From NCBI GenBank assembly GCA_000091205.1, contig AP006491.2: a DNA stretch of 64,000 bases; one strand, written 5' to 3'. This DNA is from Cyanidioschyzon merolae. Lineage: Eukaryota. Numbering within the stretch: the stretch's first letter is position 1; every line of letters begins with the position of its first letter. The notes under the pieces were generated by a model, which was given only the letters and a program-made list of their open reading frames with translations, had not been told where the DNA came from and searched no databases. Below are positions 760 through 47,275 of the stretch, one piece after another. The position numbers were made by a program, and so were the translations under genes.

Positions 760-1165
760 TCCGTTCGCCTGAAGCGTACCATGTCCGTTGCTACCCTCTG
801 TCTTCCGTTTCGATGGTACTCCATCCCCAGGTATCGGTAACCAAATGCTTTTTCGCGGTTTATAGAAGAAGCGTTCCGAGCGCGTTGATTTTGAGAAATA
901 AAGAATCTGAGGGAAAAGTATGAAGGCGTGGATTTCGGGTACCCGGTGTCGTCAGGCGCCGGAAATAAACGAACAAAACATCGTATTGCTGCCGACAATC
1001 GAGCGATGAAGAGCAATTGACGAAAAATAGAAGACGGTTGGAGATAGGGGAGAAAAGGTGTTTGTAAGACGGGACGATGACGAGAGTGTAGTGGTTCAGA
1101 AGGGCACGAATGCGAGGAATCCTTGCAGCAGTGCATTCAACAAGAGGCAACAAACGCAAGGAGTT
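760..1165 (+). mobile_element. Right-end fragment (A') of a Fanzor/TnpB-like transposon. It holds the C-terminal RuvC-III region and 3' flank. It abuts the truncated 3' end of copy A tail to tail.
   Basis: The plus strand reads ...TRGNKRKEFVNSW..., which matches the ...GKKRMEFVNRDF(H/N)(A/T)(V/A)IN(V/I)R... block of copies B and C. About 300 bp upstream aligns with the copy C region 21660-22060 at roughly 70% identity. Antisense ORF 860-1159 matches antisense ORF 21806-22069 (MRLLPLVE.T...PRIRAL). Confidence 0.5.
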
Positions 1166-3120
1166 TGTGAACTCGTGGCCTTCTTGCCATTTCCTTTTCG
1201 GTTAGCGCTACGTGCTTTCCTATCTCCCAAGCGGGTCGCTGGCAATTTCCCATCTCGATCCTCTGGAGTTTACAGCCCAGTTCGTGGTGTGTGATTACGA
1301 TGTCCGGAACTCATCTATCGGTATGGTCACGAAACCGTCTGCGCACTCCTTGCACGTTCTTGTCGACGGTGCTGGTATGCTCTCTCTTTGGGTCACCCGC
1401 CGTCCTGCTCCATACGTTACCACGAGCCTCTGACTCTTGTCCTCCTTGAGGACGCTCAACTCATTGAAAAAGCTGGTCAACGCATGCTCCCTTCCCACAA
1501 TACAAGCTCAAACACAGACGAGCTCACGGAAGTTTGGTGTACGCTTTCCACAGCGCCTCGTCATGCGCAGCTTGAGTGTCCATGACCTCTGGAAAATCTT
1601 GAAAATCCGCATGTCGGATCGTCACCTCGCTCATAGCTTCCCTGTGATCCTTCATTCCTGCATTCCATGTCTCAATTTTCTTCCCTGCATTCATGATTCC
1701 CGATTCTCGATAGTATCTCGCGCTCGAGAGCCTCAAAAGTCGCATATCTCTCTGACGTACTCTACCCTCAGTATCATCTTCCGCACGCTTGGGTACAGCG
1801 ATGGTAATGATGTTCGTGTTGCCGGGGTCCGCGCCGACGACAAAGTCGTTCTCCTGCACCTTGTTCGTCGTAGGACACGCCTTCTTGTTATCTTCGTGCT
1901 CCGCCGACGGCGATATCGAGGACGAAACAGGACGAGCTGCCTTCAACTGCCGATCGTGAACACACTAGGATACTCCATCGGTTTCGATGATGCCCGTGAA
2001 TACCGTTTTCTTGCTCGTTTCGAGACGCTCGAAATCGAAGATATTCTTCCAGGGCTTCTCGCGGTTTTCACCGGTGAACCCTGTCTTCCTTACATCGAAC
2101 CCCCGGACAGATCTCCTTCATGATGCCGTAGAGGACTCCGGCGTCGATCGTTCCAAAATCGAACTTGATGATGCATAATGGAACGACGTTGAAGCGCTTC
2201 CCCATTAGGGTCGCCCACCGTTTCAACGACTCTTCGTTTGCTTCCACACCGTGCTCCATATCCGCCTCGGGATCGAGTTGTCGGTCCAGAAACACGAAAT
2301 ATCGCACGACGAGGCGATCGTGTCTTTCCTTGATGTTTTTCAACTCTGATATCTTTTCTGCTGGATTCGGCATCCCCAGCACCGCACGGTGCTCTCCTAT
2401 AACCGCACGGATGACAGAAGCTTCGCTCGTGCTCTCGTTCGACGCCTTCGCTCCGACGAATTCGATCTCATCTTCATTCTGACTATCGTTCGCGATGCCA
2501 TTGATGATGGCCTTTGTCGCTCTGCAAGAGGGGCCCGCGTCCAGCGCAGACACGGCGCGTATCATGAAATGTTCGAGGTTCACGGTCATGCGGTTCTTCA
2601 GGTTCTCGTGGTGCTTCATTGCCCCGTATTCGTAAATATCCGCGTCACCCTTGTATCGAGTACCGTTGGAGCGGTATTTCGCGAAGTTTTCGTGGAGGGC
2701 ATACATTCGCGCATTTCTCCTCGACGTTTCCCGCGTGCCAATCATCAGATGACGAATACAGGTCTTGTCGAAAAATTCTTCCGGAACCTCGACTGTTTTG
2801 GTGTCCATCACGTCGCGATACATATCTCTCGCGATATGCATCAGTGCTACAGCAGCGAAAAGAACACGCATAGAGTGCGACTCGAAACGGGGTCTGATGG
2901 CGTCTCGCAACTTCTGCCTACGTGGATCCTCGATATGTTTGAGAAGACAGGCTTTCACCAGCATCTCGTGGTACTGTCGTCTTTCGTGCAGCTTTTGACG
3001 TAGGGCCTCGCCCTTTTGCTTCTTCGTCCTGTTTCGTTCCTATCCCATTAGCACTGTTTGTCGTTTTTCTCCGCCTGCCGGTAGCAAGGGCCCTTCAGGA
3101 TCCCCGACTTGCACCCGCAT
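1165..3120 (-). pseudogene. Fanzor/TnpB-like RuvC nuclease pseudogene (copy A). It has multiple frameshifts, an early in-frame stop and a truncated C-terminus.
   Basis: Three reading frames are needed to follow the homology with copy B. The frameshift positions differ from those in B, so they are not shared introns. Confidence 0.55.
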
Positions 3121-4150
3121 AGCTTTGCTTTGGCGTTTTTATTTCGTCAAAACGACCGCACGTCTTTTTGGCCTTAGATGAGGGCTTTCTCGGAGGGAGC
3201 GTGGCTTTCGCAAGAAAAACGACATGTGCCCCGATGTGTTACCGAGTAATGAACGCTCAGCGTTTCGCCCGGGGGAGCGATCATCACGTTTCACGATAGA
3301 AAACACTCCTACAATGCGCTTGAACCACGGAGCGCACAGACGAACAAAAATCACCCCTACCCCGATAGAATCGGCAAAAAGCTCGAACGCAAGCGATATG
3401 GTGATATGCCACGTTGCCCAATAGAAGGACGTCGCCAGACGTCCGGTAAAAGTCTTCAATGCTTGGACAAATTGGTTGGTGCTGTTGCATGTGTCTTTTC
3501 TACAAGTGAAACTGAGGCCACCAAATAAATCTTCTAAAGCTATAATAGATGATGATTTCGTCGTTCTCTTCGAGCTCGATCGAACGTACAACGGGCGTCC
3601 TTCACCTCGAATACCCATTGACGCTCCGAGCGTGCCTTGCGAAGCAAGTTTCATCAACTGAACAAACAAACTGACGATCCGGTGGTTCCTATCGATCGTG
3701 ACGTTCCAGGGACTCTGTTATTGCGATTTGGATGGAAGATGCCATTGCTTGAACGATGACTCTTTTTGAGATTGTATCCCAGTGTTTTCAGGATCATAGG
3801 CGCGACTTGGTGAGAAACAGAGACGCCTGTGGCGACTATGATCGTCGCTGTTGCTTTCCGAAAATGGTGATCAACGGATCGTTTTCTAAGATCGACTGCA
3901 AGCGACCTCTATGAATATCGATCTCTGGCACGGAGTGCATCTACATTTTTCTTATAGTTTTCGCCAACCATCTGAGTACGTCGGTATGACTGTCCTAAAC
4001 GAGGAATGCAGTCCTCCTTGGACTGTTCAGAAATGAATGTAAATGCTACATGCAAATCATCTACGATCTACACTATGCATTGCATTGCGATTTCGATCTC
4101 CTAGACATCGCAGCGGAAGTGAAACAGAATTTAGTACAAAGACTACAAGA
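1165..4150 (-). mobile_element. Fanzor/TnpB-like transposon copy A. The nuclease pseudo-ORF runs from about 3120 down to about 1165 on the minus strand, and at least 1 kb of shared 5' element sequence lies at 3139-4150.
   Basis: Minus-strand ORFs 2068-2964, 1524-1946 and 1295-1498 sit in three different frames. They are collinear with copy B at the amino-acid level: [33 protein letters not shown] (a RuvC-I-like DxG motif) and [15 protein letters not shown]. The reconstructed start codon is at 3118-3120 (MRVQVGDPEGP, against B's MEKEVEDPGGP), with an in-frame stop soon after. The 3' end is truncated at about 1165. Region 3139-4150 aligns, reverse-complemented, with 20770-21460 of copy C. Confidence 0.6.
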
Positions 4151-6025: not shown

Positions 6026-6739
6026 TCACTTCCACCACGGATTCTCACCAGTTCGAAAGTCGGTCTCCTTCCAGGGTTTGATCTCTACGAACCCGTCATC
6101 ATCCACTTCGGTATGTGCCAGAGCGAGCGACAGCGGAGCCGGACCGCGCACCACCTTCCCTGTACGATCGTACTGCGAACCATGGCACGGGCAAATGAAC
6201 TTGTTCTGTGCTGCGTTCCAAGGCACCACGCAGCCAAGGTGCGTGCAAACAGCATTCAGTGCGTAGGTTTCGAGCTCGCCGGCGTCGTTCACAACAAGAT
6301 ACGTGGGCTCCCCGTTTAGGCCCTGCACAAGGTCACGAGAGCCGGGGGGATGCGTCTTCAGATAATCCTCCTTCTTGATAGGCGTCCCGAGGGCGTCCTT
6401 TGCAATCACACCGCCTGAGCCTTTGTTCTTCAGTGGCGGCACGAAGAAGCTGGCGTACGTGCCAAGCATGATGCTTGCTGGGAGTCCAACTGAACCCACT
6501 AGAATGAGGTTCAGCAGCGTGCGCTTCCCCATATCTGGGATGTAGTCGTCATCGGATCCCGAGGAGCCGCCACCGCTGCCGCTCCCTCCACGCGCGTCAT
6601 CAACTGTACTCGGCCGCGCAAACGTCATGCGCAGCGCCACGCGCTTCCTGCCCAGCGTTGTAGGCTGGCGTTCGACTGCACCAGGATGACACCGAGACAC
6701 CGTTCTAAACGTAATGCTATTTGTTGTAAGCACGAACAT
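6026..6739 (-). CDS. petC: Cytochrome b6-f complex Rieske iron-sulfur subunit (PetC), nuclear-encoded plastid precursor
   Basis: It carries the Rieske [2Fe-2S] boxes [11 protein letters not shown] and CPCHGSQYD, followed by [14 protein letters not shown]. There is an N-terminal presequence ([14 protein letters not shown]...) and a Gly/Ser-rich linker before the transmembrane helix. Confidence 0.9.
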
Positions 6740-6999
6740 TAGCCAGAGTTATAAACAAAAACGAACCTACAAGTTGAACTCGTAGAAGAACGCAAACGTT
6801 CACACACAACACGAACAAGCAACTCGCCTTGTGATCGTCGACGATGGACGGCAGCGTGCTCGCGATGCAGGGCTTCGGGGGCGCGCGGCGTTGGACGCTA
6901 CCGCCGCCGATGGCGACGCTATAGACGCTGCCGCGTTTTCGCTCGATGTGCCTGCGCTGGAAAAAAGGAACGCTGCTATCGCTTTGAGAGACAGCAACA

Positions 7000-7700
7000 T
7001 CTGGGTATCACTGTGGTAAATGAAGGCCAGCCACTTACTTTGAGTGTAGTACTAGCAACGAATGGTCCCGTAGCTGAGCCCCAGTGCTCGCGAGTGGCCA
7101 GTGAACTCATACTCTACCTTCTAGGTGGAAGGTCCAGTGAACGAGATGCGCACACGGGACCAGTGTTACGCGCACCTACTCACTGGTGGGTGGCAAGCAC
7201 AAGCCCGAGTCGCCAACCGAGGGCGACGCTTTCCGTGTACGATCACGCAGGAGAGAGGCGGCTCCCAGGATTCATCGTAACAGCCAAGTTTCTCCAACGT
7301 GTTGTGCAGCGAAAGCAAGTTTTGCATCCGCAGGCTGTCCGAGCGCAAACTGACGACGAGACCCGATTCTTTGTCGAGTGAAGCACGCCTCGAGCAGACG
7401 CCGTCTGTGGTACGGCAACGCCGTTCTGTTTCTGTGCTACGACAGCACCGGCGCTACAAGCGCTATTGAGGCGGATGTTCACGGGCAGGCACTCGGCGCC
7501 CGATAGCACGTCTGAAACGCCAGTACATCCGAGACGAAGTATGGATTATGAAACTTGGACGTAAGGCGTGGAATGACGAAAGTTTCACCGCGCGCAGGCT
7601 CCAAGCGCACAGAGTCGCGGCACGCTCGCCTGTGTGAGAAGTTTTCACATGGAACAAAATCCGCTGCCTTTGCTGTTGCCGCTGATTGTTCTCCAATGAC
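7000..7700 (+). repeat. Dispersed repeat family R2, copy 1 (about 700 bp, non-coding). It carries an internal 5S-rRNA-like segment on the minus strand at about 7350-7470.
   Basis: Region 7000-7700 aligns, reverse-complemented, with 49690-50360. One 60-bp block, gagaggcggctcccaggattcatc.taacagccaagtttctccaacgtgttgtgcagcg, is nearly identical between copies. Partial copies lie at 13068-13215 and 19109-19320. Confidence 0.6.
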
Positions 7701-7920
7701 AAAACATTTACATGGTATTTGGATTCCAGATAGCGAGATGGATAGGTACTGGTGATCGAAAAAGTGTCCATCGTGATGCACTCTACCTCCATGCCCCATT
7801 ACTTATACTTACTTTCGGATGTACTGATCGTTTTGTGCGTTCTGTAGTGCGCCGAGTGCCTGCTTTGAGCAACCGCCTTAGCGCCTAAACTGCTGAAGCA
7901 GATACTGCACGGAGATAGAA

Positions 7921-8020
7921 CGGCGTTGCCATACCACTGAGGGCGCCGGATCGATGAACGCTTCACCTGATACAGCGTTGGAATGCACAATAATTCTGGG
8001 AGCCTGTAGGCTAAACAGAC
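7921..8020 (+). ncRNA. 5S rRNA-like segment, truncated (about 95 nt). It is probably a pseudogene or a 5S-derived repeat module.
   Basis: The 5' part acggcgttGCCATACCACtgaGGgCGCCgGATC resembles the 5S 5' consensus cTACGGCCATACCACcCTGAAcGCGCCCGATC. The 3' part tCTGGGAgCCTGTAGGCT resembles the 5S 3' end CCTGGGAA...GCTGTAGGCT. The middle is shortened and terminal helix I complementarity is not kept. Confidence 0.35.
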
Positions 8021-8539
8021 ACAACTACTGCCTGCGAAAGCGCGAACCGATATATTAGGAGTCTACTGCGATCCGGGCGACGACCAAACACAGCATCCCG
8101 CGTCTAGTCCCAGAATGAACTGCGTTGCGGACGAGCTGCTCAGGTCTCGCCACAGCGCCCGCTACTGGGGGGAGCACGAAGCACGAGTCTGGGAGACTCG
8201 TCCTGCTCGCGGGACTTTTCGCCTAGAGGGAGGATTCTTCAGAATATGGAAACCTTTTTCCCCGTTTTCAAAGTTTATCGTAGAACGGGAGAGAAATTGC
8301 TGTATCGTTGCTCGCTAGTCGTGAGTCTCTCTTCTTTGTTCTACATAGTGCTGTCGATTTGCGCACCAGGGAGATCTGTCAGTTTCGAGTCACGACGCGT
8401 ATGCTGCCGTTGAAGGGAAACGCGATCCTGATCAATAGCGTGCTGCTCTAATGTGCAAGTTGTACTTGCGTTAAAGACGTAGCAAAGTACAGTTCTTCAG
8501 TTCATTTGTGTCTCAAACCTCAAACAAGTGTATTCAACT

Positions 8540-10900
8540 GTTTTTTCGCAGTATATAACTGAAGCGTTCAAAGTCCGTTACAAAAGATAAAAAAGGAAAG
8601 TTATGGAAAAGGAAGTGGAGGATCCTGGAGGCCCAGTGTGGCTGGCCGCCAGAAAAAAAAACAAAAAAATAGTGCCGAGTCCAGAAGAAAACGAAGCGAG
8701 AAAGAAGCAAAATGGGGGCCCTACGTCGAAGGCTGCAAGAAAGACGTCTGTACAACGAGACGGTGGTGAAAGCCTGTCTTCGTAAACATACCAAGGATCC
8801 GTACAAGGCAAAGTTGCGAGGCGCTATCAGAAACCGTGTCGGGTTGTAATCCATAACGATTATAAAGGGGTCGTCAGTACGAATGCATTTGGCGAGGGAG
8901 ATGTACGAAGACGTGACGCACGTGGAAACAGTCGAGGTTCTGGTCGAGTTTTTCGACAAGACCTCTATTCGTCACCTGATGCTTGGTACGGGGGAATCGT
9001 CGACAAAGAAAGAGCTAGTGCATGCCCTCCACGAAAACTTCGCAGAATTCCGCTTCGAGGGAACTCGATACAAGGGTGACGGAAATATTTACACATGCGG
9101 GGTGATGAAGTACATCACGAACCTGAGGAACCATTTGACTATGAACCCGGAGCGTTTCATGATACGCACCGTCTTTGCGCTGTACTCGGGCCTGTCTCGC
9201 AAAGGAGTATGGGCGATTACCAATGGCATCACGAACGATCGCAAGCATGATGAGATCGAATTCGTCGACAGGAAGGCGTCACGCAGGAGAAGGTTTAAAA
9301 CTTCTGTCATCCGTGCGGTTATACAAGAGCACCGCGCAGTCTTGGGGTTGGCGAATTCAATAGAAAACATATCAGAGTTGGAAAAAGATAAGGAAAGATA
9401 CGATCGCCTCATTCTGCGCTATTTAGTGTTCTTAGACCGAGAACTCGAACGCAAGGCAGAGGTGAAGCTGAGTGAGGAAAAAATGAAGAGTGGAGGAGAC
9501 GGAAGGCTGACCTAATGGGGAAGCGCTTTAACGGCGTTCCGTTGTGCAACACCAAGTCACATTTCGTGAGTATCGACTCCAGACTCTTTTACGGCATCAC
9601 GAAGGAGATCAGTCCCGACTTCAATGTTAGCAGGGAGGACTTCACCGGCGAAAACCGGGAGACGTGCGGTAAGAAAAGTATCTTCTATTTCAAACGTCTG
9701 AAAGTGAGCAAACAAAAGATATTCACTGGGATGATCGAAACCGATGGAGTAGCCATGTGTGCACACTATCGGCGCTTGACGACAGATCGTCCAGTTCCGC
9801 CCGTGACGAAGCATGAAGAGAAGAAGGATGCGGGTCCTGCGATGCAGGAGGTGGAGGATAACGACCTGGTCGTTGACGCGACGAAGCATGAAGATAACAA
9901 CAAGGCGGCTCCTGCGACGCAGAAAGTGCAAGATATCGACTTTGTCGTTGGCGCGGACCCCGGAAACACAAATATCATCACCATCGCAGCACCGAAGTGT
10001 GCGGAAGATGGTACTGACGGTAGTTTACGTCAGAAAGACATGCGTCTATTGAGGTTCTCGAGAGCTAGATACTACCGAGAATCGGGAATCATGAATGCGG
10101 GGAAGAAAATCGAGAGCTGGAATTCAGGAATGAAGGATCACCTAGAAGCTTTGAGCGAGGTGACGAGCCGCGGAGCCGACATTGAAGCTTTTCGGGAGTC
10201 CATGGAAGGTCCGCGTTGCTCATTGGGATACGCTGTGGGAAGAGTACACCAAGCGCCGGTGGGCTCGTCTGCGTAAGAATCTGTATTGTGGTAAGCAACG
10301 TGCATTTGCCAACTTTTTCAATGCGTTGAGCGCCCTCAAGGAGAATGAAAGTCAGAGGCTCGTCGTAGCGTACGGAGCAGAGCGCTGGGCGTCCAAAAAA
10401 GGGACTACACCAGCTCCGTCGACAAGAACGTACAAGGAGTGCGCACGGCGTTTCGCTACGATACCTGTAGACGAGTTCCGAACATCGTATACACACCACG
10501 AACTGGGGTGTACGCATCACAGAGTGGAGATGGAAACGTGCCAGAGGAGTCCTGAGGATATAAAAAAATACGGAGCGCTGATGGAGGGGCAAATGGAAAG
10601 GAGGGCGAAATTTAGCGGATTGCTTGCATTAGTAAGTACACTCAATGATGGCAAGAAACGGATGGAATTCGTGAACAGAGACTTTCACGCAGTGATCAAT
10701 GTAAGATGTGCGGTAATGGAGAAAAGGCCTCGATACTGGACACGAGAGAACTTTGTTGGACAACCTCTCAAAGTGGAACTATATAAGAAAAAGCTGGAAG
10801 CAGTAATGGGTGGCCGGTCCAAAAAAACTGGGAGGCGTCAGCACATCAGTTAGAGACGATTTGTCTAGGGCGCGTTCGCCGCCACTGCTGAACACCGTCG
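8540..10900 (+). mobile_element. Fanzor/TnpB-like transposon copy B (divergent subfamily) with a decayed nuclease ORF
   Basis: ORFs 8603-8785, 8883-9515, 9515-10276 and 10182-10853 lie in alternating frames. Together they reconstruct a protein of about 750 aa with [17 protein letters not shown] (RuvC-I), [42 protein letters not shown] (a degenerate Zn-ribbon position) and KRMEFVNRDFHAVINVRCAV (RuvC-III, RDxNAAxNI-like). Amino-acid identity to copy A is about 55-60%. Sequence upstream of the start codon (beyond about 60 bp) is unrelated to copy A. Confidence 0.6.
8603..10853 (+). pseudogene. Fanzor/TnpB-like RuvC nuclease pseudogene (copy B). It has at least three frameshifts and one in-frame stop.
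   Basis: The frames are 8603 to 8712 (+1 to 0), a stop near 8835, a shift at 9515 and a shift near 10190. Part of the acidic N-terminal segment is tandemly duplicated ([24 protein letters not shown] / [24 protein letters not shown]). Confidence 0.55.
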
Positions 10901-11029
10901 GCGTCGTTCGACTTTTGCAAAGTGTTCGGTATCGGTGTCGGTGACGGTGTCGGTGCGGTGTGCGTTTCAGTTGCTGCCCTGCGCTTTCGAGCATCAGCTT
11001 ATATAACTCTGTGCACACGTGAACTGCCA

Positions 11030-11971: not shown

Positions 11972-13067
11972 AGGAATGCGTATCGACGGATGGGTGTACC
12001 GTGCACGAGAGGCGGCGCTGATGGCATTCACACGACCGCGGGTGCGAGCATAGCAGCCGTTCTGACGACGACATGCGAGGGCTGACGCCCAGCATGGCAG
12101 CCTGCTCAAGCACGGGCCGCTAGGAGCCATGGAGCATTCGCCGGCCGGCCTTGTAACTTAGAGGCACCGGACAAGCCGATGCTTAGCGACGACTGCGGTC
12201 GAAAAGCGTGAAACCGCGTGAGTTCTGTGCCATGAGTGCGTGACGCTTTGATGGAGTAGCTTCGAGTAGCGACTCGTCACTATGAGAAAGAGGTGATCAT
12301 CACATCATGGCGCGTTGGTGTTCCCTGGTTGTACGGAATGTGGATACTGTCTGGGGTCCGGCGCAGCGAGTTGCCACTTGAGCGTCTCGATATTGCTCCT
12401 TTGGAGCGCGCACGCAAGCAGCCTACGAGAACGTTCGTTTGACGTATTTGTCTTCCGTATCAGCGCTGCTGCTTCACTGGAAAGCGATCGGTTCGCTTTG
12501 GTGTAACGAAGCGAGTGATGCACGAGCTCTGAACGCCCGACGGAACGAGGCTGTTGTGCGAACGCTGGCGGCGCCTGTGCGTCGCATGTCGGCTAACCAG
12601 GAGAACACCCATCGTGGAGCGCTTCTTCTTCTTCTTTTGCGCATGCGTTTCATTCATGTATGTCAAGGTACGCTGTGTCTGTTCAAGTGCACGGATTGTG
12701 CTTGTCGTGGAGGATGGCGTACCCGGGTCTTCAGCGTCCGCAGCACGACGCACGAGTATTAGATTTTTGTTTTGTTATCAGCTTGCGGGGAAGGTGATGA
12801 ATAGCACGGCACCCTTACAGGAAGCATCATCCTGAGCAAGCACTGGTGCCAAGGAATGCAAGTCTTCAGTTCCACGTAAACGGAAATGTTTTACTGGTTC
12901 CGCGGACGGAGCGCGAGTCACCCGAGAGATCTGACTGTATCTAGCGCGGAGCATAACACTCAAGTGGCGCCTGCCCACTGGTCGTTGCTGAAGCTTCCTC
13001 TCAATTCGTGACTTGTTCTTCGCTGCAACCGCCACCGCCGCGGCATAGCGCACGCAGCGATCCCGCA

Positions 13068-13215
13068 CCATAGGTAATGTAACTTGGAAGTCGGGGATTT
13101 GATGGATACCTCACCGTGCACTGAAAAAAAACACACAAAAAAAGTCAGAAAAGAAAAAGCGCACCATCGGAGAACGCCGGCCTAAGCAAACGTCTCGTCC
13201 GTGGAAGCGAAATCG
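13068..13215 (+). repeat. R2 repeat, partial copy (core with A-rich stretch)
   Basis: The sequence taggtaatgtaacttggaagtcggggatttgatggatacctcaccgtgcactgaaaaaaaacacacaaaaaaagtcagaaaagaaaaagcgcaccatcggagaacgcc aligns with 19150-19290 and with the reverse complement of 49700-49840. Confidence 0.55.
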
Positions 13216-13634
13216 ATCCCGCACCAGCGTCCATCTGCTGCGAGATTGAGATGTCCGTTATAGCCAGATTCGTGTCCTAGCCCAGTGCGTCGTTTCGCGC
13301 CTAAATCGCCACCAGAGGCGCGAAACGACGCACTGCATCCGGATGCCGCACTGCGGCCTGTACGGCTGACGGTGCGTTGCGCACGTTGCGCGCGTTGCAG
13401 CTACAAAACGTTGGCAGTGTCCGTTTGGAAACAGCGTTCCTGGACGTACGTAGCTCGCTAGCTCGCTAGCAAGCAAGGTATATTTTCTCAAGCGGTTGAA
13501 TACACTCCCTGAATCCAGGGAGTCGCACGCTTCAAGCGACAGGTCGCTGCTACAGGTGCGGACACTACTGAGCTGCGCACCGTGGACACGTCTGCGTTGC
13601 GCTAGCGTGGCCTCTACTCGTCAAAGAAACCCCC

Positions 13635-18910: not shown

Positions 18911-19108
18911 GGAGACGCAGGCGCGCGCGCCCCGTGCGGATCGGTGCGAAGGGTCGCGATCTGGCGACGCACAGCATCGCCGCTGCGCTGCGCGTTTGCA
19001 TCGGGTGCTGATCCTCGAGCCGACGCCCTCTGTGGTATAGAAAAGCTGTTCTTGCTCAATGAAGTATCTGCTCCAGCGGCTAAGTTCCCAAGGCGGATGA
19101 TTAGGTTA

Positions 19109-19320
19109 GGTACTAGGCACACACGACAGGACGTACGAAACGACCAGAATATCCGAGAAGAAGTATAGGTAATGGAACTTGGAGGTAGGGCGTTTGATAG
19201 ATACTCCACCTCGCACTGAAAAAATAACACAAAAAAGTTTGAAAAGAAAAATGCGCATCATCGGAGAACGCTGGCACAAGTAAACGTTTTGTCCATGAAA
19301 AACATCCGGTGCTGATGCGC
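19109..19320 (+). repeat. R2 repeat, partial copy
   Basis: ggcacacacgacaggacgtacgaaacgaccagaatatccgagaagaagtataggtaatggaacttggaggtagggcg...gaaaagaaaaatgcgcatcatcggagaacgctggcacaagtaaacgttttgtccatgaaaaacatc is the reverse complement of 49693-49870. Confidence 0.55.
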
Positions 19321-20769: not shown

Positions 20770-22140
20770 ACTTTCGCTGCGTCGATGCGAATGGTACTGC
20801 GCATTGCGTAGGAGGAGATCGAATTCACGATGCAGTGTACCGTATAGATTGTGGACGCATCGCCTATAGGATATATATACTTGTCTGAGCAATGCACGGA
20901 GGACCGCATTCTTCATTTAGGTCAGTCATACCATACTAGTCAGATTGATGAGGAACACTGAAAGAAACAAGTAGATGCGCTCTGTGTCAGAAATTGGTAT
21001 TCTTAAAGATCGCTTGAAGTCGATAGTAGAAAACGACCTGTTCAGCAAGTCATGAAGAGCAAAAGCGACAATAATAGCCATCATGGGCGTCTCTGTTTCT
21101 CAACTGCTCTTTCGTGTCGTCCTGTAAACACTGGGATACAGTCGCAAAAAGCGAGTCCAGTTACATGTACGACCATCTTCCACCGAAATCGCAACTAGCA
21201 CAGAGTCTCTGGAACTCAGCGATCGGTACGAGGCACCGCATCGTCTGTTTGTTTCTCCAGTGGATGAGACTTGTTTCGGAAGGCACGGTCGGAGTGTATA
21301 ACGATATTCCCGGAGAAGGGAGCCCGTTGTACGTACGATCCAAGTCGAAGAGAACGACCACATCATCATTTGTTCTGGATGGAGTGGATTCATGTGTTGG
21401 CATCCGTTTCACTCGAACAGGAGGCGCATACAACAGCATCAATCGCTTTGCTGAATGATTGAAGACGTTTCCCTGACACCTGGCGAGGTCCTTCTATTCG
21501 ACAACGTGGCACTTCACCATTCCCTTTGCGGTCGAGCTTTTTTCTCTTCTATCTGGTAGAACTGCTTTTCATTCCTCCGTACGCTGCATGATTCAATCCC
21601 ATCGAATAAGTGTTTTTCTATCGTGAAACGTAGTGATCGCTCCAGTGGGCGAATCCCTGAAGAGTGTTTACCACGGTGACAAAATGAGGAACGTTTCGTC
21701 TTTCTTCCGCAAGCCCTTCTCGCTCAGGGAAGGTCCTCACCTAATGCCATAAACAAGTGCGTTCGTTTTTGAAGGACAAAAACCCAAGGGAAAGGCATGC
21801 ACATGTTAGTCAGGGATCCTGGCGGGTCGATGTCGCGGGCTACCAGGAAAAACGACAAAATTCTCTTCTCGCCTACCATCGAGCGAAGATGCGCAAGTAT
21901 CCGAGAAGAATAGGGGATATAGGCAATGAAACGTACTTGCCCGAAAGTATGACGACGAGACTGCAGTGGCACAGAGGGCACGAATTCGAGGACTCCTTTC
22001 ATCGGTGAGTTCCACCAGCGGCAATAAACGCATGGAGTTCGTGAACCGAGACTTTAACACCGCCATCAATATCAGACGATGTGTGGTGCTGAAAATTAGG
22101 ACCGACCGGCTGACGAGAGCGAATCTCCTGGGCTAGCCCC
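20770..22140 (+). mobile_element. Fanzor/TnpB-like transposon copy C. It is an internally deleted (non-autonomous) derivative that keeps the 5' element region and the 3' RuvC-III-encoding end.
   Basis: Region 20770-21460 aligns with the reverse complement of 3139-4150 (copy A upstream region). Region 21660-22060 aligns with 760-1165. The terminal ORF fragment reads ...SSTSGNKRMEFVNRDFNTAINIRRCVVLKIRTDRLTRANLLG*. The central nuclease coding region is missing. Confidence 0.5.
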
Positions 22141-24445: not shown

Positions 24446-26885
24446 GTCTGGACCTCGGCAGGTCTTTGCTGGGTAGCACGTGGTGCAAGGCGTCCGCTGT
24501 CAGGCCTGCGGCGGAATGGAGCGCGGACCCAGTCCGTAGCATACCAGAGGACTTTTGAACGGCTGGCCGTAAGCAGCACATGATGCGCATCCCTTCATTC
24601 CCTGCAAGGTCAAGGTTTTCATCGTTCAGAATCAGGGACGCCAACCAGATTCCGCCCGAGCAGGCACAGCATCCATGATGGAGGCAGATGCGAGTGGCGG
24701 CGAGACGTCGAGAGCAATGCGCTACCATGCGTTGGTGCTTGGACAGCCACGTGGTGCGTTCCTCTCAAGACACTGGATGCGCCTTGCATACGGGTATCCC
24801 TGGAGCAGCTACCTAATCCCCAGATGTGGTCGACCGGCGATCAGTCGTTTTCATAGAGCCTTCGGGTCGATGCCGCGCTTCTCAGAGACAGAAATGGGCG
24901 AAGGGCACCAGAACGCGTCCGGATGCCGGCACCTCGCTTGCCGCTGCCAGGTCTTGGATGCTGCTCACAGCATAGCGCATGCTCGGGTCTTTTCAGACGA
25001 TACAGCGTCGAGACTCCCACTTCCATATCCGTTTACTGAAGCACATAGCCGGCCTTGATGACCAAAGTTCGATTCTCTGCACACCGCGGCGTCCTTGGGG
25101 AACCTTTCGCACAAGTGCCGCTGATGGCGTCTGCGATTCTCGCAGACGCCAATCCCGGTGTGCACAAGTCTGCACCAGCCACGACGCCTAGTCGTTCGAT
25201 AGAGAACTGTGTTCGATTCAAGAGCCGCACTGAACTGCTTGCTCTGTTCCTGAATTTCAATATTTTTCCGGACTTGAGATATCCAGCCTCGAGCATCGAT
25301 GTGCAGCGATAACGGATGACGGATTCATACATGGGTTAAGGATCCTCGGTCGTTTTTTTCTCAAGTGGCTGCTTCGACGCTCTGCCGCCGGCATTCCTTC
25401 CATCATCGGTATCGAGATGATTCGCCAAGGCCTCGAGCAAGCCTTCATAAAGTAACCGATATCGTGAACCAAATGAGGTATACAAGCCTCCACGCTTCTC
25501 CTTTGCTTACTTTTGGCGTGTTCAAAGCACACAAGCTTCAAGATTCGGACCTCTCTATTCCAGTACAATGCATGGGCATAACAACTCGCAAGGATGGATT
25601 GACGAGCGAACATACTCGATGCCGCCGCCTGACTTCCTGGTCACAAGCTCAGGCCGGCGCCTCGTCGATCTTGCCCAGCCAACGAATCGATTCTGTCCGA
25701 TACATACATGCACCTCTCTATATGGCCATTTACGAAACGGTATCCAACATGGCGTGATCCCTCCTCGGGAATCTGCTCCAAGAGGCTTCAGTCTGTCATG
25801 GTTGCAGGGTAAGGAGTCATGTACTCGAACTTCTATCATTGCAGCGATCGCTTCCACCGGAGCTTGCATCATCGTTTTACGCAAAGAGAGCGTGTACGGA
25901 CCCAGGTTTCTCGACTTGATCTTCAGGCCGGAATTCGCTTTCAATAGTTGTTCTATCATGGAAAAATTCGCGTTCCACAAATCCTCCGTCGAATGGGAGG
26001 GCGCGCTTCTGCGCATCCAGCCGATAGAGTACTCGCTAACGAGTTCACCTAGAAAGAGCCCGAGATCGTAGGGTACGACACTGGGCGCGAAAACGGAGGA
26101 AGGCGTCGTGCAGCGCCTTTCGTATGACACGGAAACGAGACCCAAACTTTGCCTCGTAAATTCGTGTTAGCTAGGCGGGATCCGTCCCATTAAAGTCAGA
26201 CTTGGATGTTTGAAGAAACGAGTAGGTGAGCGTGTGAGCGCTGGTCCAATAGCATGCGTTCGCTTCGCGCTCCCGCAGGCAGTAGGTCTGTCTGCGCAAC
26301 TCGCAGGCTCCCAGAATGACAATGAATCCCGACCCTGTGCCGAATAAGGCACGCCTCCAGCCGACACCCTCTATGGTATGAGAGAGCCGCTCTGCTGCCG
26401 TGCCACACCTGCACCAGCGATAAAAGCGCTCTGGTGGATACTAGCGACAGGCACTCGGCCTCAGAACAGCACCTATAAAACGACCAGTACACCCGCAAGC
26501 AGGTCCAAGTCAACGCTCTTTAAAATAGAGCGAAGCATGATGGGCGCGCTCAGTGCTTTCGATGTCCATCCCGCACAATCTGGGATCTATGGTTCATAGG
26601 AACGTTGAATCAAAATAGAACAAAAAGACTAAAACTGCCCACGATGAACGCTCCGATCTCGTCGGAGGCACGGCCGGGTGTCGTGCCGCGAGGTGCGTGC
26701 TCGCGGCGCCGCGCCGTGCGCTCGCGGCTCGACGCGGCCTGGATCTGCAGCCGCTGGATTCGCGGAAGACTTTGCACTGTAGGCGTGTGCAGCCGCAGGG
26801 AGTTGTGTGTGTGTGCTTGTGTCTGCGCGTGCGAACACCTTCTTGTTCAGACTTTGACACTTACTTAGCTTGAGCGTTTTCCAGC

Positions 26886-34135: not shown

Positions 34136-35634
34136 GTCGTTGAAAGCAGCAGCCCCAACTTACGGCAACCAGTTGATCACTTCACGCTGATTCCAGGGAA
34201 CAAAGAGCGACGGCGAGTTTCGTGCGCTTCGCTTCAGACGTAAGCGTCGCTCACACTTTTCCTCGAAGAAAAGAAAAGTGCGCGCGCGCGCTCGACGCTG
34301 CCGTCGGTACCCGCCAAATCTACAGGCTGCGGTCTAGGCGTCGCTGTGAGCGTTTCGCGAAGCGTCTAGGCACGTTCACTGGTGGACGCTCTTACAGGTG
34401 TCGCAGAGAAAAGCACAACCGGAGGACGTCTGACTCGTTTAAGGGACCAAAAATCGCCAGAAAGTTTGGATAGCAACGTCGATGCCATTGCATTCTGCGG
34501 CTGAAGACGCAGGGTGGAACTTCACCGCTGAAGTTCGGTGATGCGTCGACAGCTTCCTCGATATGCGCTCGAGCACGCCTCCTCTGGCGCACTACGGATT
34601 CTGCTCGTGAAAACCTAAAATCGTCATGTTTCCCGAACTCTCTTCTTCTATTCCATTGGTCATGAAAAGGACGTTTGCGTCTATTGCTAGCGCTCTCGAC
34701 GCGACCTGGAAGCAACCGAGTCATCGGAATAGCGTACGACTGGGGCCGTGGCGCGCTGCGGCACCTGCCAGCCAGTGCCGACAGGTCACTCGGTGAACAC
34801 GCACCGGTGGACACGCTAGGCGAGCATCCAGATGGGATTCCATGTTTTACGGGGTCGAAACGAAGGCTCTATTCAGAGAACCCTGAACGCACGACTCGTA
34901 TCGGCAACCAGGGAAGCGGCTACCATGTCACTCCAGCCAATTTGAGTCTCCATATTCACAGTCAGATTTTTCTTCGGGGATCACCGTTCATTCGAGCGAT
35001 CCTTCGAGTGTCGCATTTGTTGTGCGCGTCTGTTGCAGCGCGAAACGCGCTGTTGCTGATGCCCCTCTACAGACAGAATCGCAGTGCCTTACGCCTATGG
35101 GTATCGTCAAAAGGGATGGAAGCACCTGTGCGTACCAGCGGGTTGCGCTCGACATTCGCACTGGATGCAAGTGTCAGAGTGTTTCGTTCATATTCGGACT
35201 AGGTGGAAGCACGTGCGGGCGCTTCGCTCCGAGGTTGTGACGTTGCACGACGAGGCGCCTCCGCCGGTGGCATGGCTGGCGTTCGGCATTTTTCGCGCGG
35301 ATGCCGCTGTTGCTATCGCAGAACCCGCGCCTCGACGCATGCTCAAGTCGAGACCTCGTGAAAGCTTGTTACAGAATCCGTACGTTTAGCGCTATCACGG
35401 ACGAATACGTCGCAGTGCAGGCAGTCGGCTGGCTGTGTGCTGTGCACCAGCTTTGAACGTGGATCATCGGGCAGCGATGCAGTCGAAGGCGCGAATCACG
35501 AGCACGCTCCACTGCGGCAGGTGCTTCATTCACAACCCGAGGGCGCGACAGGAAGCTTGTCACGAGAGCCGTAAAAGCTCAAGAGCGAGCGCTCATGGAT
35601 CTGTGCTGTCACCAGCGACACCGCAGATGATCGC

Positions 35635-42007: not shown

Positions 42008-45000
42008 TTAGGGTGCCTGTTCGCCAGGGGGCATATCCTGCTGGGGCTCTATAGCCATATCGGTATCTGCAGCGGTATCACCGGGATCAACATCAGCAGC
42101 GGCTGTATCAGGAGCAGCATCAGCGGTATCACCGGTTTCAGTAGCAGGTGTATCAGGAGCAGCATCAGCCGTCTCAACATCAGCAGCAGTGGTATCAGTA
42201 GCAGCTGTATCAGGAGCAGCATCAGTATCGGCGGTATCAGGAGCAGTATCGGGAGACGTTTCCTCTGGACCTGAACCGCTCGCTGACACTTCCAGTGGAT
42301 CCGGAGCAGATTCCATGGCTGGTGCTTCCGCGTCCACACCAGCAGCATTTGAATCACCAGCAGGCTCTGGGGCAGCTTCTGAAACATCTTGTGGTGCACT
42401 GGCCTCCGTCCGAGCATCTGCTGCGGGCGTTCCTGGTGCTGATGCCTCACTAGTCTCCGGCTCGAGCGCAGGAGGCGCGTCCGTAGGCGTCTGCTCCGGT
42501 GCCTGCGCTGACTCCTGCGTGCGCTCATTCTCCACTGATCCAAAAGAGGCACAGTGCTGAACCATTAGGACAGCCGAATACGGTTCCATGTGGAAAGGCA
42601 TCGATACGCAGGTCATCGAGGTTTCGACGTCCTCGGGGAAACCGCTCGCTCCAGCCAGCGCGAAACAGTCCATCGGTGCAGGTGCCGCTGTATTGAAGAG
42701 CACCGCCCAGCCTGACTTGCCGTCGGCAAAACGGGGGGCAGTGATATCGCACGCTTCGTGTGAGGCGTTAAAAGCGATGTAAAGGTGGCGACCTTGCAGT
42801 GCTGGTGCCCGTGCACCACGTATTACAAACGCCAAAAAGTTGTTCGGATTTTCCCAGTTCAGGGGACAAGCGGAGGTGTCCGCCAATGGCTCCTCTGAGC
42901 TCGTGTCATCATCACGCTCGCCTACGGAGCCAAGGGCATTGCAGAGTACCGCTGCCGAGGCGTCCGTGCCACACCAAACAAAGTCGCCGCGAGACTCGGA
43001 GAGAAAGCGGCGCCAAATGGGGGCAGTCAGCTTGCGAAAGTGCACCAGCGTACTCACAAAGCGGAAAAGGGAACGAGCTTCACCGGACTCGGATGCCAAC
43101 GCATTCCAGTGGAGATAATTGAGCTCATTATCCTGACACCACACGTTGGAGTTGCCACGCTGGGTGTGGCCGATTTCATCCCCGCTGCGGATCATAGGGA
43201 CTCGGGCACTGCACAGCAGTATGAGGAAAAAGTTGCGCTCCTGACGACGTCGCAGACGCAGCACGTTCTCATCGTCGGTCTCGCCCTCGACACCACAGTT
43301 CCAGCTGAGATTGTGTTTCTCGCCGTCGCGGTTGTCTTCGCCGTTTGCCCAGTTTTGGGCATCGTTATAGGACACAAGATCGCGGAGGCTCATCCCGTCA
43401 TGGCAGGTGATAAAGTTGATCCCGTACGCGTGGCCGTTCTCCTGGAGACCCCGCCGAATCTCCGCCGGAACATTCCCTCCGTAGATGTCCTCGGAGCCGC
43501 AAATCCGGGTGGCCATCTCTTGGATCATGCCGGTGTCGCCCTTGATGAACTTTCGTACGCAATCGCGGTACTTGCCATTCCAGTCGGACCAGCTGGGTCC
43601 AAATTGTGCGAAATGCCCCACGACGTAAGCGCTGAGGTCCCATGGTTCTGCAATGAAGAGCACGTCTGAGAGGGCGCTATCGTTCTTCAACGCTTGAATG
43701 ACTGCTGGGAATTCCATGAGATCGAAAGGAGGCACCGTGGAGCGGAGAAGGCATGCTGCCAAGTCAAAGCGAAACCCATCGACTTGCATATCGTTTGCCC
43801 AGAAACGCACGCAATCATGAATGACCTCAATGCCTGCCAAAGAGTTGCAAGCGAACGTGTGGCCGCACCCAGAAAAGTTCACATCGTTACCATGATCGTG
43901 CAGATAGTACTCTCGATTCGCGAGTGCCCTAAAGTGGTAGGTCTTCCACGTCTCGGCGGTGTGATTGAAAACAATGTCGAGAATGACGGCGATGCCAGCA
44001 CGGTGCAGTTCGCGTACCATGGTGCGAAACTCATCCAGAACATGGCGGTAGCGGTACGCTCTTGCCCACTTTCGGCGCGCAGCTTCCGAGGTGGCCGCCC
44101 CAATCACCGAGAAACGGTTCATAGGTGCGAAGAATGCAACCGTCGAGTAGCCCCAGTACTGGCAGAGATCTTCCCCAGTGGAAGGGTTCTTCTTCTGCCA
44201 CTCCAGCTCATTGAACTCGAAGATAGGCAAAAACTCGACGCAGTTGATGCCAAGCGCTTTCAAGTACGGAATTTTTTCGATCACCGCGGTAAAGGTTCCT
44301 CGGGGGCTGCGGATATCCTTCGCCATTGCCGTAAACGAGCGCACATGGACCTCGTAGATAACCATGTCGCTGGCTGGTATGTTGGGCTTTCGCACGCCTT
44401 GCCAATCGAATCCGCTCAGGTAGTCGAGTGGAGGTATCACCGCAAAAGGAGTGTACTTATTTTTGCGCTTCTCTCTGGCATGAAAATCATAATACAGCGG
44501 TGAGTCAATGATGCGTGCGAAAGGATCGAGCACTATCTGCGCACCCTTGCCGCGACCTACGCGCCATGCGTACCGGTACCCAGCCAGAAGCGGTTGCACC
44601 GCCACGTGCCAGACTTTACCCATTCGGTTTTTCCGAGGATCAAGGCGCAGCTCGACGCAAGAGTCCAGTGCAAGCACTGCAAACCCACTGCTGTCGTCGT
44701 TAGGCGGCTCGAGGTTCTTGTCGTCGCCGGCTTCAGCGTCTTCGGGAATAGCTTCGAGCGCACCGCTGCCTGCAGCGAGCGCACTTCCCTCGGGATGATA
44801 TATGATCAGAGACATGTGCCGCTGCTCAGTGCTGTAGATCGCAAAGTTGACAGTGTTTGCATCGAGCGGGTGACACCCGTACGGACTCGGTTTGCCTCGG
44901 AGGACGCGGCTAAGCCAGGGCGCTCCAGTGAGCGACTTGCGCGACTCAAGAAGAATCGACGCTGACGACGTCACCCGGCGAATGCGTCGCCCAGTTGATT

Positions 45001-45043: not shown

Positions 45044-45290
45044 GAATCTACCACGTGGTCCAAAAGTGTTCCGAAGAGCGTTTGTAGCGACACCCGCTGT
45101 GCTACGGGAACGGTTAGCTAATGCCCCCCAACCGATAGGCTACGGCAGTGAGGATCGCGGCACCACCAGCAGCAGCAGCCGTTACGCCAAAAAACGCTTA
45201 GCAGATGCTTTACTCGGCGGTCGGCTGTGCGTACGGCGCAGCGCACGTGCACGTGCGGTGCCCGTGAGGCCGTCGAATGCGTCGATTGCG

Positions 45291-45619
45291 CTGATGCTGC
45301 TGCTGCTGCTGCTGCTGATGCTGCTGCTGATGCTGATGATGCTTTCGGAGGTGGCGCTCATTGCCGCCTCCGCTTTGCGATTTAGCCGATCTCCCGTGCA
45401 AGGTGGCGCTGCTGCTGCTGATGATGCTGCTGCTGCTGATGATGATGCTGAAGATGCTTTCGGAGGTGGCGCTCATTGCAGCCTCCGCTTTGCGATTTAG
45501 CCGATCTCCCGTGCAAGGTGGCGCTGCTGCAGCAGCTGCTGCTGATGATGATGCTTTCGGAGGTGGCGCTCATTGCCGCCTCCGCTTTGCGATTTAGCCG
45601 ATCTCCCGTGCAAGGTGGC

Positions 45620-45650
<31 letters not shown>

Positions 45651-45719
45651 ATGCTTTCGGAGGTGGCGCTCATTGCCGCCTCCGCTTTGCGATTTAGCCG
45701 ATCTCCCGTGCAAGGTGGC

Positions 45720-45750
<31 letters not shown>

Positions 45751-45755
45751 ATGCT
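45291..45755. repeat. Minisatellite. It has four tandem units of about 97-115 bp, each ending in a (GCT)n(GAT)n microsatellite core, preceded by a (GCT/GATGCT)n tract.
   Basis: Units begin with gctttcggaggtggcgctcattgccgcctccgctttgcgatttagccgatctcccgtgcaaggtggcgctgctgctg... at 45341, 45456, 45553 and 45653. It is intergenic, between the isoamylase and PheRS genes. Confidence 0.85.
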
Positions 45756-46976
45756 ACGTTCGATGTTCGTTCTAATTCTAATATGTCGCTGCAGGGTAGG
45801 CGTACGTTCATGGAGCGAAGCGATGCAGGCTAGTAATAAGGATCGTGTACTGGATATCTTGGAGTTTGTACGCTGGTGTTGAAACTTGTACGTGACTTTC
45901 ATTGTTGTTCTCTATGAGAGTAACTGCGAGGCGATCTGATGGCATTCGATACGGCAATGCAGCTGTTCCTGGATGAAAAGCAGTTCCGCTGGTATCTCGC
46001 TCGATAGCACTGGCGGATCAGATGCGTCCTCGTAAGCGCGTCACGGGATACGTCCACGCGCTGCTTCTTTCATTGGTACGGGGAAACGCCTGGGTTCTCT
46101 CACGCCTTGGTTTCTTCTATGATAAAACGAGCGCTTTCGTTTCTACGACGCTTTGCACGCACTTATCACTGGACTGCACGGCCCGTACCCTCTGCGCGTC
46201 CAAGCTCGACACTGTAACGTATCCAAGACGCAGTACGGATGGTGCACACTGCCCGTGCTAGTGCGTCCCTATTGCAAAGCGTCGGGGCAGATGGCTGCCC
46301 AGCGGCCTGGCAGCGGGCCGCAAGCGTACGCTTTCCTCCTGGAAGACTCGGGGATGTTGTATCACGAACGAGCGCCCCAGAGCTGCCTCCATTCCCAGAC
46401 ACCGACTAGTGTGGTATCGAAAACGTTCTCTTCCAGTGGTTTTCTTCGCCGCTGTCGTGCGGATTGCCAACACAGTGGTTCACGAGAAGGAGCACGCCTT
46501 CTGCCGGGTGCCGAACCCCGAGCACGCTGCCGTGCGCAGCATCGTTCCGTGTGGATGCAACCATACCGGAGACTGCTAGCACGCATCGACTACTGTTCAT
46601 GAGGCGCTGTCTAGGAAGATGCCATTGATAAGGCGCACAAAACAGGAATTCGCATGGCGCTCGCGACACTCTCCTGTGTTCTGCAGACTTGAGCCCAGCG
46701 CATGTCCAGTACGTTTCCGCTGCATATGGAGCGCACTGCAGCCATCAGGCGTCAGTTGCGATGCCGTGCAGGACGCTTGTACAGGATAAATGCAATTGAG
46801 GCTCAACCATGGCGTGTATTTGAAAACATAATCAGGAGGCAACGACGTTGACATCTGTGTGCAAGAGCCCCCAGGGTAAGGCTCAGTTCCGGCATTGGCG
46901 GCCCCGGGGCACGGCGGACAATGGCCGTACGCATTCGGTTTGGAGTGTTTTACTGGTAAAGGTGCTGGGGTGACTG

Positions 46977-47176
46977 CTTTAGACTTGCTGGACACCCGGT
47001 ACAGAGCCTATTGGAAAAGCCGTGCTTTCTAACGTTTGTCAGCTTGATCAATCGTTGGGAAGCGCTGCTTCACCTGCCTTAGACTTGCTGGACATCCGGT
47101 ACGGAGTCCTTTGGGAAGCCGTGCTTTCTACCGTTTGTCAGCTTGATCACTTGTCGGCAAGCGCTGGTTCAACTCC
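46977..47176. repeat. Tandem duplication, two units of about 100 bp, immediately upstream of the PheRS-alpha gene
   Basis: Compare cttagacttgctggacacccggtacagagcctattggaaaagccgtgctttctaacgtttgtcagcttgatcaatcgttgggaagcgctgcttcacctgc with cttagacttgctggacatccggtacggagtcctttgggaagccgtgctttctaccgtttgtcagcttgatcacttgtcggcaagcgctggttcaactccc. Confidence 0.8.
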
Positions 47177-47275
47177 CTGAGACTCACTCCGCAACGGAAC
47201 AGGCCTTTGTGCACAACCCAGACTTCCAGGATTCCGCAGTGTGAACAAGCAACGTCGGGTTCAGCAGCGCTCAAA

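Follow-up and report, generated by a model that had tools for sequence, protein, structure and literature searches.

Genes and repeat copies of the locus

The stretch of DNA analysed here, 64 kb long and referred to throughout as the window, is nuclear, with about 56% G+C across its length and intron-poor eukaryotic genes. The genes of the window are those for PetC, PsbO, a CBM20 trehalose-phosphate synthase, an isoamylase, PheRS and ALG11. Its PetC was 100% identical to proteins encoded on hot-spring metagenome contigs from JGI/ENA, and shared 88% identity with the PetC of C. merolae 10D and 80% with that of Cyanidiococcus. Two large inverted duplications, pairing 1179-3024 with 10604-8702 and 3057-4102 with 21859-20813, are also found in the window.

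A preliminary description had reported a dispersed, non-coding repeat family, named "R2", with four copies in this region. Self-comparison of the window confirmed that the family is real, that it lies near the positions first given and that its similarity is far above chance: 6948-7568 aligned in inverted orientation with 50419-49805 (80% identity, E=9e-155), 49650-49981 with 19345-19013 (E=1e-63), and 49680-49831 with 13222-13070 (E=1e-30). All four copies were recovered, with limits refined by profile search, and two more that had been only half noticed, at 7680-8366 on the minus strand and 26260-26629 on the plus strand, were added, giving six occurrences of tail fragments in 64 kb. These belong to two tail families, F1 and F2.

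Copy A (6907-7662, plus strand; nhmmer match to positions 15-786 of the F1 tail, E=4e-228) is an old, diverged 3′ fragment of the F1-family LINE, with 77% identity to LINE consensus 1981-2630. It begins just past the CCHC-like motif of ORF2 and spans the 3′ UTR up to the 3′ end of the element (...CACATGGAACAAAATCC). Placed tail-to-tail with it, at a distance of about 21 bp, copy B (7680-8366, minus strand; nhmmer match to positions 3-685 of the F2 tail, E=4e-201, together with the alignment of the F1 and F2 consensus sequences) is a LINE-type tail of the F2 family, in which 574 nt are homologous to the F1 tail and are accompanied by a linker of about 130 nt. Copy B is the 3′ part of a 3.2-kb composite interspersed element whose body, E2, occupies 8361-10925 (annotated without a strand) and adjoins copy B without a break at eight or more distinct loci.

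The other copies are shorter or stand alone. A 143-bp F1 tail fragment lies at 13071-13213 (plus strand, E=9.8e-23; 13058-13226 including its target-site duplications, TSDs), and a 295-bp F1 tail of what is called here the 300-nt class, composed of a Y domain and an A-rich module Z, lies at 19013-19307 (plus strand, E=3.5e-74; 19004-19316 including TSDs); its 5′ end coincides exactly with that of the Y domain. The F2-family fragment at 26260-26629 (plus strand; nhmmer match to F2 tail positions 318-685, E=2.3e-68) is a tail-only copy placed about 257 bp upstream of the PsbO ORF; it is old, with 67-72% identity to the other copies. The fragment at 49691-50464 (minus strand, E=7e-272; 49679-50476 including TSDs) comprises 774 bp of the F1 LINE 3′ end, presents 91% identity to the consensus and is 5′-truncated within the CCHC region. 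Moreover, two weak candidate relics of F2-type tails, at 34874-35107 on the minus strand (E=5.8e-6) and 56011-56091 on the plus strand (E=2.9e-5), were detected by nhmmer only.

Five of the copies preserve a module of about 180 nt, termed Y: in copy A at 7384-7565 on the plus strand (nhmmer Y-domain profile, E=1.5e-46, and a pattern match), in copy B at 7782-7959 on the minus strand, and in the others at 19012-19189 (plus), 26350-26528 (plus) and 49807-49985 (minus). The A-rich core of about 150 bp that had been described as common to the four copies was found in those at 13k, 19k and 50k, where it corresponds to module Z, but not in the 7k copy, copy A, from which the internal A-tract is missing.

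The repeat copies were absent from the syntenic PetC-WD40-516aa-975aa-MCMbind block in Cyanidiococcus (L011) and in GCA_041825655 (L012), and the PetC-WD40 spacer, which spans 4.2 kb in the window, measures only about 0.5 kb in both. Empty sites were not found for the 13k, 19k, 26k and 50k insertions, each being present in every strain contig that covers it. Breakpoints at 6788, 6821, 7409 and 10903 may be either true rearrangements or chimeras of assembly.

Contiguity of the repeats with a reverse transcriptase gene

Metagenome contigs were scanned with a degenerate Y pattern that matches five of the five window copies and none of 100 shuffled sequences. The 95 stretches retrieved formed 38 clusters at 95% identity, two of which (L028 and L075) were chance pattern matches and were left out, resulting in 36 distinct copies. 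Mapped on the 50k copy, they appeared as nested elements with one common 3′ end (...GTTTTGTCCATGAAAAAAAT), located within about 10 nt, while their 5′ ends were placed at consensus 1256 or earlier, 1600, 1963, 1981, 2172, 2440 and 2445-2448; the 13k copy is shorter still. The terminus ...GTTTTGTCCATGAAAAAAAT(C), which is a short A-run and not a long poly(A), was preserved in nearly all F1 copies. No long terminal repeats or terminal inverted repeats were observed at the ends of the aligned copies, an alignment that ends short of the full-length 5′ end.

The longest copies (L045/L109, L087 and L110) have at least 2.7 kb in common and terminate at the 3′ side just where the window copies do, and the 50k copy was 87.6% identical to L045 positions 2110-2880. 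In L045 and L087, the DNA upstream of the repeat encodes a reverse transcriptase (RT) domain, RVT_1 (Pfam E=2.4e-23, above cut-off), in an ORF that carries the motifs YVCFIDF..KAFD and FADD followed by a C-terminal CCHC-like motif, CPCCRDEIPETLTYLGLQCPRW. The RT was seen in the long metagenome copies, and the window copies carry the tail only. This RT was 89% identical to P0129 (E=1.6e-88) and 85% identical to P0134 (E=1.1e-84), both C. merolae 10D proteins named "retroelement, alive", with 64% of the query aligned in each case; its best PDB matches were R2 proteins (E=4e-15) and LINE-1 ORF2p (E=1e-12). The contigs break inside the LINE, and the longest recovered sequence lacks the 5′ part of the element; inspection by eye of the 800 bp upstream of the RT in L111 and of 2.7 kb upstream in the related L108, which stop short of the 5′ part, revealed no recognisable APE motifs. 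Downstream of the RT, the layout is of the CCHC C-terminal type, with no restriction-like motifs. Within the recovered part of the element, neither an endonuclease domain nor an ORF1 was seen.

The repeats named "R2" in the preliminary description are thus read as the 5′-truncated 3′ ends of a non-LTR, LINE-type retrotransposon, with a probability of about 0.9. They are dead-on-arrival LINE tails made up of the ORF2 C-terminus and the 3′ UTR. The direct observations are the membership of the copies in the repeat family, the contiguity with the RT gene, the common 3′ end, the variable 5′ ends, the TSDs and the absence of a 5S signal. As judged from the RT comparison, the element is of the same family as the "retroelement, alive" of C. 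merolae 10D, and a tail family of a known red-algal retroelement is an ordinary finding. The two agree in the 85-89% identity of the RT over the aligned 64%, in host lineage, in the non-LTR type and in the small number of RT-bearing copies, and differ in that the window, compared with the 10D element by RT alone, holds tail fragments only, which RT-ORF counts miss. In C. merolae 10D, 26 non-LTR (class I) retroelements have been reported, three of them intact with RT (Nozaki et al. 2007, PMC1955436).

Insertion signatures and decay of the inserted copies

TSDs, which the preliminary description had proposed to look for, were found as perfect duplications of 9-13 bp around three window copies. 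The 13k copy is bounded by 13 bp (CGATCCCGCACCA, at 13058-13070 and 13214-13226), the 19k copy by 9 bp (GGTGCTGAT, at 19004-19012 and 19308-19316) and the 50k copy by 12 bp (ATCGATCACGCG, at 50465-50476 and 49679-49690, read on the minus strand), and the three pairs sit exactly at the junctions predicted from the consensus. Duplications of 9-14 bp were also present at other loci (L017, L086 and L107). None was detectable around the old copies A, B and 26k.

Such features are consistent with copies made by target-primed reverse transcription, in which the RT would prime on the nicked target and copy the RNA from its 3′ end; by usually halting early, it would leave tails of differing length bounded by short TSDs, which would then decay neutrally. 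Copies of this kind are well known from animals, where 5′-truncated L1 and CR1 elements have a common 3′ end, variable truncation, TSDs of variable length and neutral decay. The family described here resembles them in all four respects and differs in that its 5′ ends cluster strongly 300 nt from the 3′ end and in that it terminates in a short run of A and then T(C) instead of a long poly(A).

Between copy A and the 50k copy, substitutions were distributed over the three codon positions as 21/17/27, with no bias, and copy A is decaying neutrally. A coding reading of module X, the part upstream of Y, was considered given that frames of 122 and 162 aa are open in both copies, and it was rejected, as there was neither an excess at third positions (21/17/27) nor a Pfam domain. 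Since module X starts within or just past the CCHC region, its open frames are the decayed ORF2 C-terminus, which fits the absence of codon-position bias. The copies are divided into a decayed C-terminal coding part of ORF2, from the CCHC-like motif or after it (module X), and a 3′ UTR formed by modules Y and Z and ending in ...GTTTTGTCCATGAAAAAAAT(C). The initial intuition that the copies had been retroposed, are non-coding in effect and end in an A-rich tail was right, and TSDs are indeed present.

A block of about 60 bp had been singled out as almost invariant, and it was indeed verified that 7244-7300 and 50125-50069 are identical at 56 of 58 positions, against about 75-80% in the flanks. 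From these two copies alone the block is only marginally significant; when 11 long copies were considered, it became part of a plateau of about 165 nt (7244-7410 on the plus strand of copy A), in which old and young F1 copies are 85-91% identical, compared with 55-78% in the flanking sequence. In the consensus frame that includes the CCHC motif, a frame made ambiguous by a 2-nt indel polymorphism upstream, a TAA stop lies in the core (7278-7280 and 50088-50090), which places the core where ORF2 gives way to the 3′ UTR or close to that point. The core block is not conserved in family F2. The uneven conservation had been attributed to selection at the nucleotide or RNA level, and it does point to constraint on an active RNA, but not on the inserted copies: because these decay neutrally, the uneven divergence would have arisen from constraint on active master elements or from recombination among them. 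In the mechanism proposed here, the constraint would act on the active master RNA.

Conserved domain Y and the 3.2-kb element

Comparison of the F2 and F1 consensus sequences revealed good conservation only in Y (about 85-90%), in the last 30 nt or so, which are nearly identical, and in a short block at F1 tail position 222; the two families thus have in common a Y domain of about 185 nt and the terminal sequence. A three-helix model of Y, partly derived from the same sequences used to score it, placed 87.5% of cells in pairs over 32 copies, compared with 38-48% in slid controls. The covariation score was 0.253, with at most 0.113 in slid controls and 0 of 500 shuffles reaching the observed value, and the covariation largely tracks a few subfamily cassettes and so reflects few independent events. 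The helix formed by columns 62-67 and 99-105 occurs as GCGAC/GTCGC, CTATC/GATAG-like or GCATC/GGTGC, three variants in which the changes compensate one another, and in one helix five pairs are changed on both sides. Frequent G-U pairs in the helices favour the sense strand. RNAalifold, run on the five window Y copies and on both strands, gave a positive covariation term, that is, no support, and single-sequence folding was no more stable than that of shuffled sequences for the core (z=0.21) or for the whole 3′ UTR (z=0.48). Taken as predicted structures, the three sense-strand helices of Y have some covariation support.

The RTs of stringent-type LINEs recognise a specific stem-loop of the 3′ UTR, and pairs of LINEs and SINEs share the 3′ tail, as in eel UnaL2/UnaSINE1 and zebrafish ZfL2. 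The present families resemble these systems in the conserved 3′-terminal domain common to a LINE tail (F1) and to the tail of another repeat (F2), in the near-identity of the terminal 30 nt or so between F1 and F2, and in helices with compensatory changes. Y is most likely the part that the RT must recognise. The present case departs from UnaL2/UnaSINE1-type pairs in its partner, a 3.2-kb composite in place of a short Pol III SINE, in the absence of a promoter head from the 300-nt copies, and in the recognition by the RT, which is putative here.

The F2 tail is contiguous with the body at 8361-10925, which defines a 3.2-kb element at 7684-10925 with at least eight distinct full copies elsewhere. 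Tail-only F2 copies at other loci have a common 3′ end, corresponding to about 7686-7697, and variable 5′ ends. The E2 body carries decayed ORFs on the plus strand, antisense to the LINE-type tail; no Pfam domain was found in these ORFs, and a DUF8286 label was not reproduced. No TSD was found for the 3.2-kb composite. At other loci, the left end of this 3.2-kb element comes immediately after the 3′ terminus of F1 tails in sense orientation, and the composite of copies A and B recurs in L047 and L081 together with part of the flank.

In C. merolae, a repeat of 3.2 kb has been reported in 253 copies, which amount to about 5% of the genome. The element of the window resembles it by description, and the two may be the same repeat.

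Alternative explanations

Strings similar to the 5′ and 3′ ends of 5S rRNA had led to the proposal of a 5S-derived SINE or of dispersed 5S pseudogenes, whose transcription by Pol III would depend on a 5S-type promoter inside the element. The strings, GCCATACCAC..GGGCGCCGGATCG and CTGGGAGCCTGTAGGCT, are literally present at 7929-8013, in antisense within the Y domain of copy B, and such short matches also occur inside other Y copies, and the family is short, dispersed and A-rich in its tail, as this reading would expect; nevertheless, their resemblance to 5S rRNA is no better than chance. Using cmscan and Rfam 15, no match to 5S_rRNA (RF00001) was found at gathering score in the whole window, nor even at E<=10 in the regions of the two long copies (6500-8500 and 49300-50800), and the other Rfam families gave nothing credible at the same thresholds in the same regions. 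The tRNA scan found no tRNA, and no Pol III A box was present within two mismatches on either strand, the sole B-box-like string having two mismatches and lying inside a variable cassette. Moreover, what the sense strand of the element carries, as judged from the A-rich 3′ end and the direction of ORF2, is GTGGTATGGC, which reads as GCCATACCAC only in the reverse complement and forms one arm of a 3′-UTR helix; the 5S-like decamer thus belongs to the strand opposite to the retroposed one, in a region that is the 3′ UTR of a LINE with an RT gene. At the 5′ end, no 5S-like head was found in sense orientation. The preliminary description had itself made its proposal depend on a covariance-model match and, since there was none, the 5S reading is refuted by its own standard and retains next to no probability; the repeat family has no detectable relation to 5S rRNA. 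The 5S-derived SINEs of vertebrates (SINE3) are likewise short, retroposed and LINE-like in the tail, and the likeness goes no further than that, given that the window repeat differs from them in its lack of 5S homology under the covariance model, in the antisense motif and in having no 5S-type internal promoter. Two other readings were judged very improbable. The presence of copies ahead of PetC and PsbO, at 170-600 bp from the start codon, and the covariation in Y could suggest a family of structured ncRNA genes, or a cis-regulatory module of photosynthesis genes duplicated along with promoters; however, other copies lie in unrelated contexts with 36 distinct flanks, the TSDs and the common A-rich 3′ end indicate insertion and not promoter duplication, no Rfam family matches, and neither Cyanidiococcus nor GCA_041825655 has the copies ahead of PetC. 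Segmental duplication of intergenic DNA without retrotransposition would likewise agree with the two large inverted duplications in the window and with the recurrence of the A-B composite along with its partial flank, but it does not account for copies that stop sharply at one 3′ end, are truncated in nested fashion at the 5′ end, have flanks of their own and are bounded by perfect TSDs.

The recurrent copies of about 300 nt, composed of Y and Z, raise the question of a true non-autonomous, SINE-like element with its own master gene and promoter, a borrowed LINE tail and mobilisation in trans. At least ten apparently independent insertions, each in its own flanking sequence, have their first nucleotide in the 4-nt interval 2445-2448 of the consensus, which marks the 5′ limit of Y at a distance of 300 nt from the element's 3′ end and is also where conservation between F1 and F2 begins; a discrete length and a tail in common with a LINE are hallmarks of SINEs. 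On the other hand, short and long copies interleave in the neighbour-joining (NJ) tree and both classes carry hairpin cassette a or b, from which it follows that there is no separate SINE master lineage; the short copies have no distinct 5′ head, no match to tRNA, 7SL or 5S and no A box, and the data are explained equally well by an RT that stops repeatedly at one place or by a LINE RNA that starts internally. A SINE-like element of its own is therefore unlikely, and the copies are LINE tails, truncated at the 5′ side, whose parent element is autonomous. The 300-nt start would be compatible with an internal start site, with processing of the RNA at that point, and with an RT that stops at a structured domain. 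Within the preferred reading of LINE tails, a broader scheme is put forward tentatively, as a possibility with rather less than even chances: Y would be a structured recognition module common to the LINE and to the 3.2-kb element, the latter being probably the 253-copy repeat and a non-autonomous retroposon dependent on the LINE, and the 300-nt copies would be a promoter-less proto-SINE derived from an internal start, a processing site or an RT stop.

Implications

About 3 kb of puzzling intergenic DNA can now be annotated as LINE debris, and a false lead, that of a 5S-derived SINE in a red alga, has been removed. Mild novelty is limited to three points: a Y domain common to both tail families, a class of 300-nt copies, and the link with the 3.2-kb repeat. 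The contrast between the 26 class I elements credited to C. merolae and six tails in the 64 kb of the window indicates that the counting of RT ORFs understates retroelement activity in genomes famous for being poor in transposons. If Y truly links the LINE to the 3.2-kb repeat, this would explain the spread of the most abundant repeat of Cyanidioschyzon, and Y would then offer those who study retrotransposition a compact RNA element that can be tested in an alga amenable to genetics.

Expansion of the PetC-WD40 spacer

The divergent PetC-WD40 intergenic spacer extends over 4.2 kb in the window (6740-10921) and measures approximately 0.5 kb in Cyanidiococcus (L011 9509-10001) and in GCA_041825655 (L012 9398-10001). 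The extra DNA consists wholly of two tail-to-tail LINE fragments and a 3.2-kb interspersed element. It was also observed that PetC is found in tandem duplicate in Cyanidiococcus yangmingshanensis (L011 10001-10717 and 11887-12735) and as a single gene in the window.

The ~3.2-kb element (7684-10925) is also represented at 1076-4102, in inverted orientation, and at 20813-22046; at least eight distinct full copies were found elsewhere, in metagenome loci. Its 2.5-kb body carries decayed ORFs on the + strand, which belong to a protein family of at least 73 members known from metagenomes only and presenting no Pfam domain, and the tail of the second LINE-type family (F2) lies on the opposite strand; a 75-bp tandem duplication is also present within the element (9802-9951). 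This element is probably the repeat named R1 in the preliminary description. It is also a candidate for the 3.2-kb repeat of which C. merolae 10D is reported to have 253 copies.

Other LINE traces and repeats

With the F2 tail profile, nhmmer gave weak hits at 34874-35107 (- strand, E=6e-6) and 56011-56091 (+ strand, E=3e-5), which may be LINE relics of great age. The same metagenomes revealed a second, related LINE lineage (L108 6001-8608). Compared with the F1 consensus, it shows 61% identity in the RT and ~67% at the DNA level, the contig end cutting this sequence before its tail.

Tandem repeats were found at 45261-45770 (four CTG/GAT-rich copies of ~100-115-bp units, 89-95% identical) and within the isoamylase ORF (GCAGC-type, 9-30 bp, 42063-42247), together with a ~100-bp duplication upstream of PheRS (46974-47184). 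Separately, the segments 25319-25559 and 58459-58697 formed an inverted pair of 241 bp at 66% identity (E=1e-11).

Breakpoints and element junctions

Metagenome contigs 97-99% identical to the window part from it precisely at repeat boundaries or within them, with breakpoints at 6788, 6821, 7409, and 10903 (compared with L005, L008, L002, and L001). L002 changes over to another LINE tail at 7409, and L001 fuses the region beyond 64000 to 10903->5584, reversed. Either genuine rearrangements mediated by the repeats or chimeric assembly could account for these breakpoints.

In the 3.2-kb element, the left end of the body (GCGCTCGGTGA|GCGCACC..., window 8361) directly abuts F1 LINE tails in sense orientation, at their 3′ end. 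The tails differ in length, and the junction is seen at L020 6394-6405, L023 ~350-367, L105 4985-4966, and in the flank downstream of the short copy in L095. This adjacency suggests a target preference or 3′ transduction.
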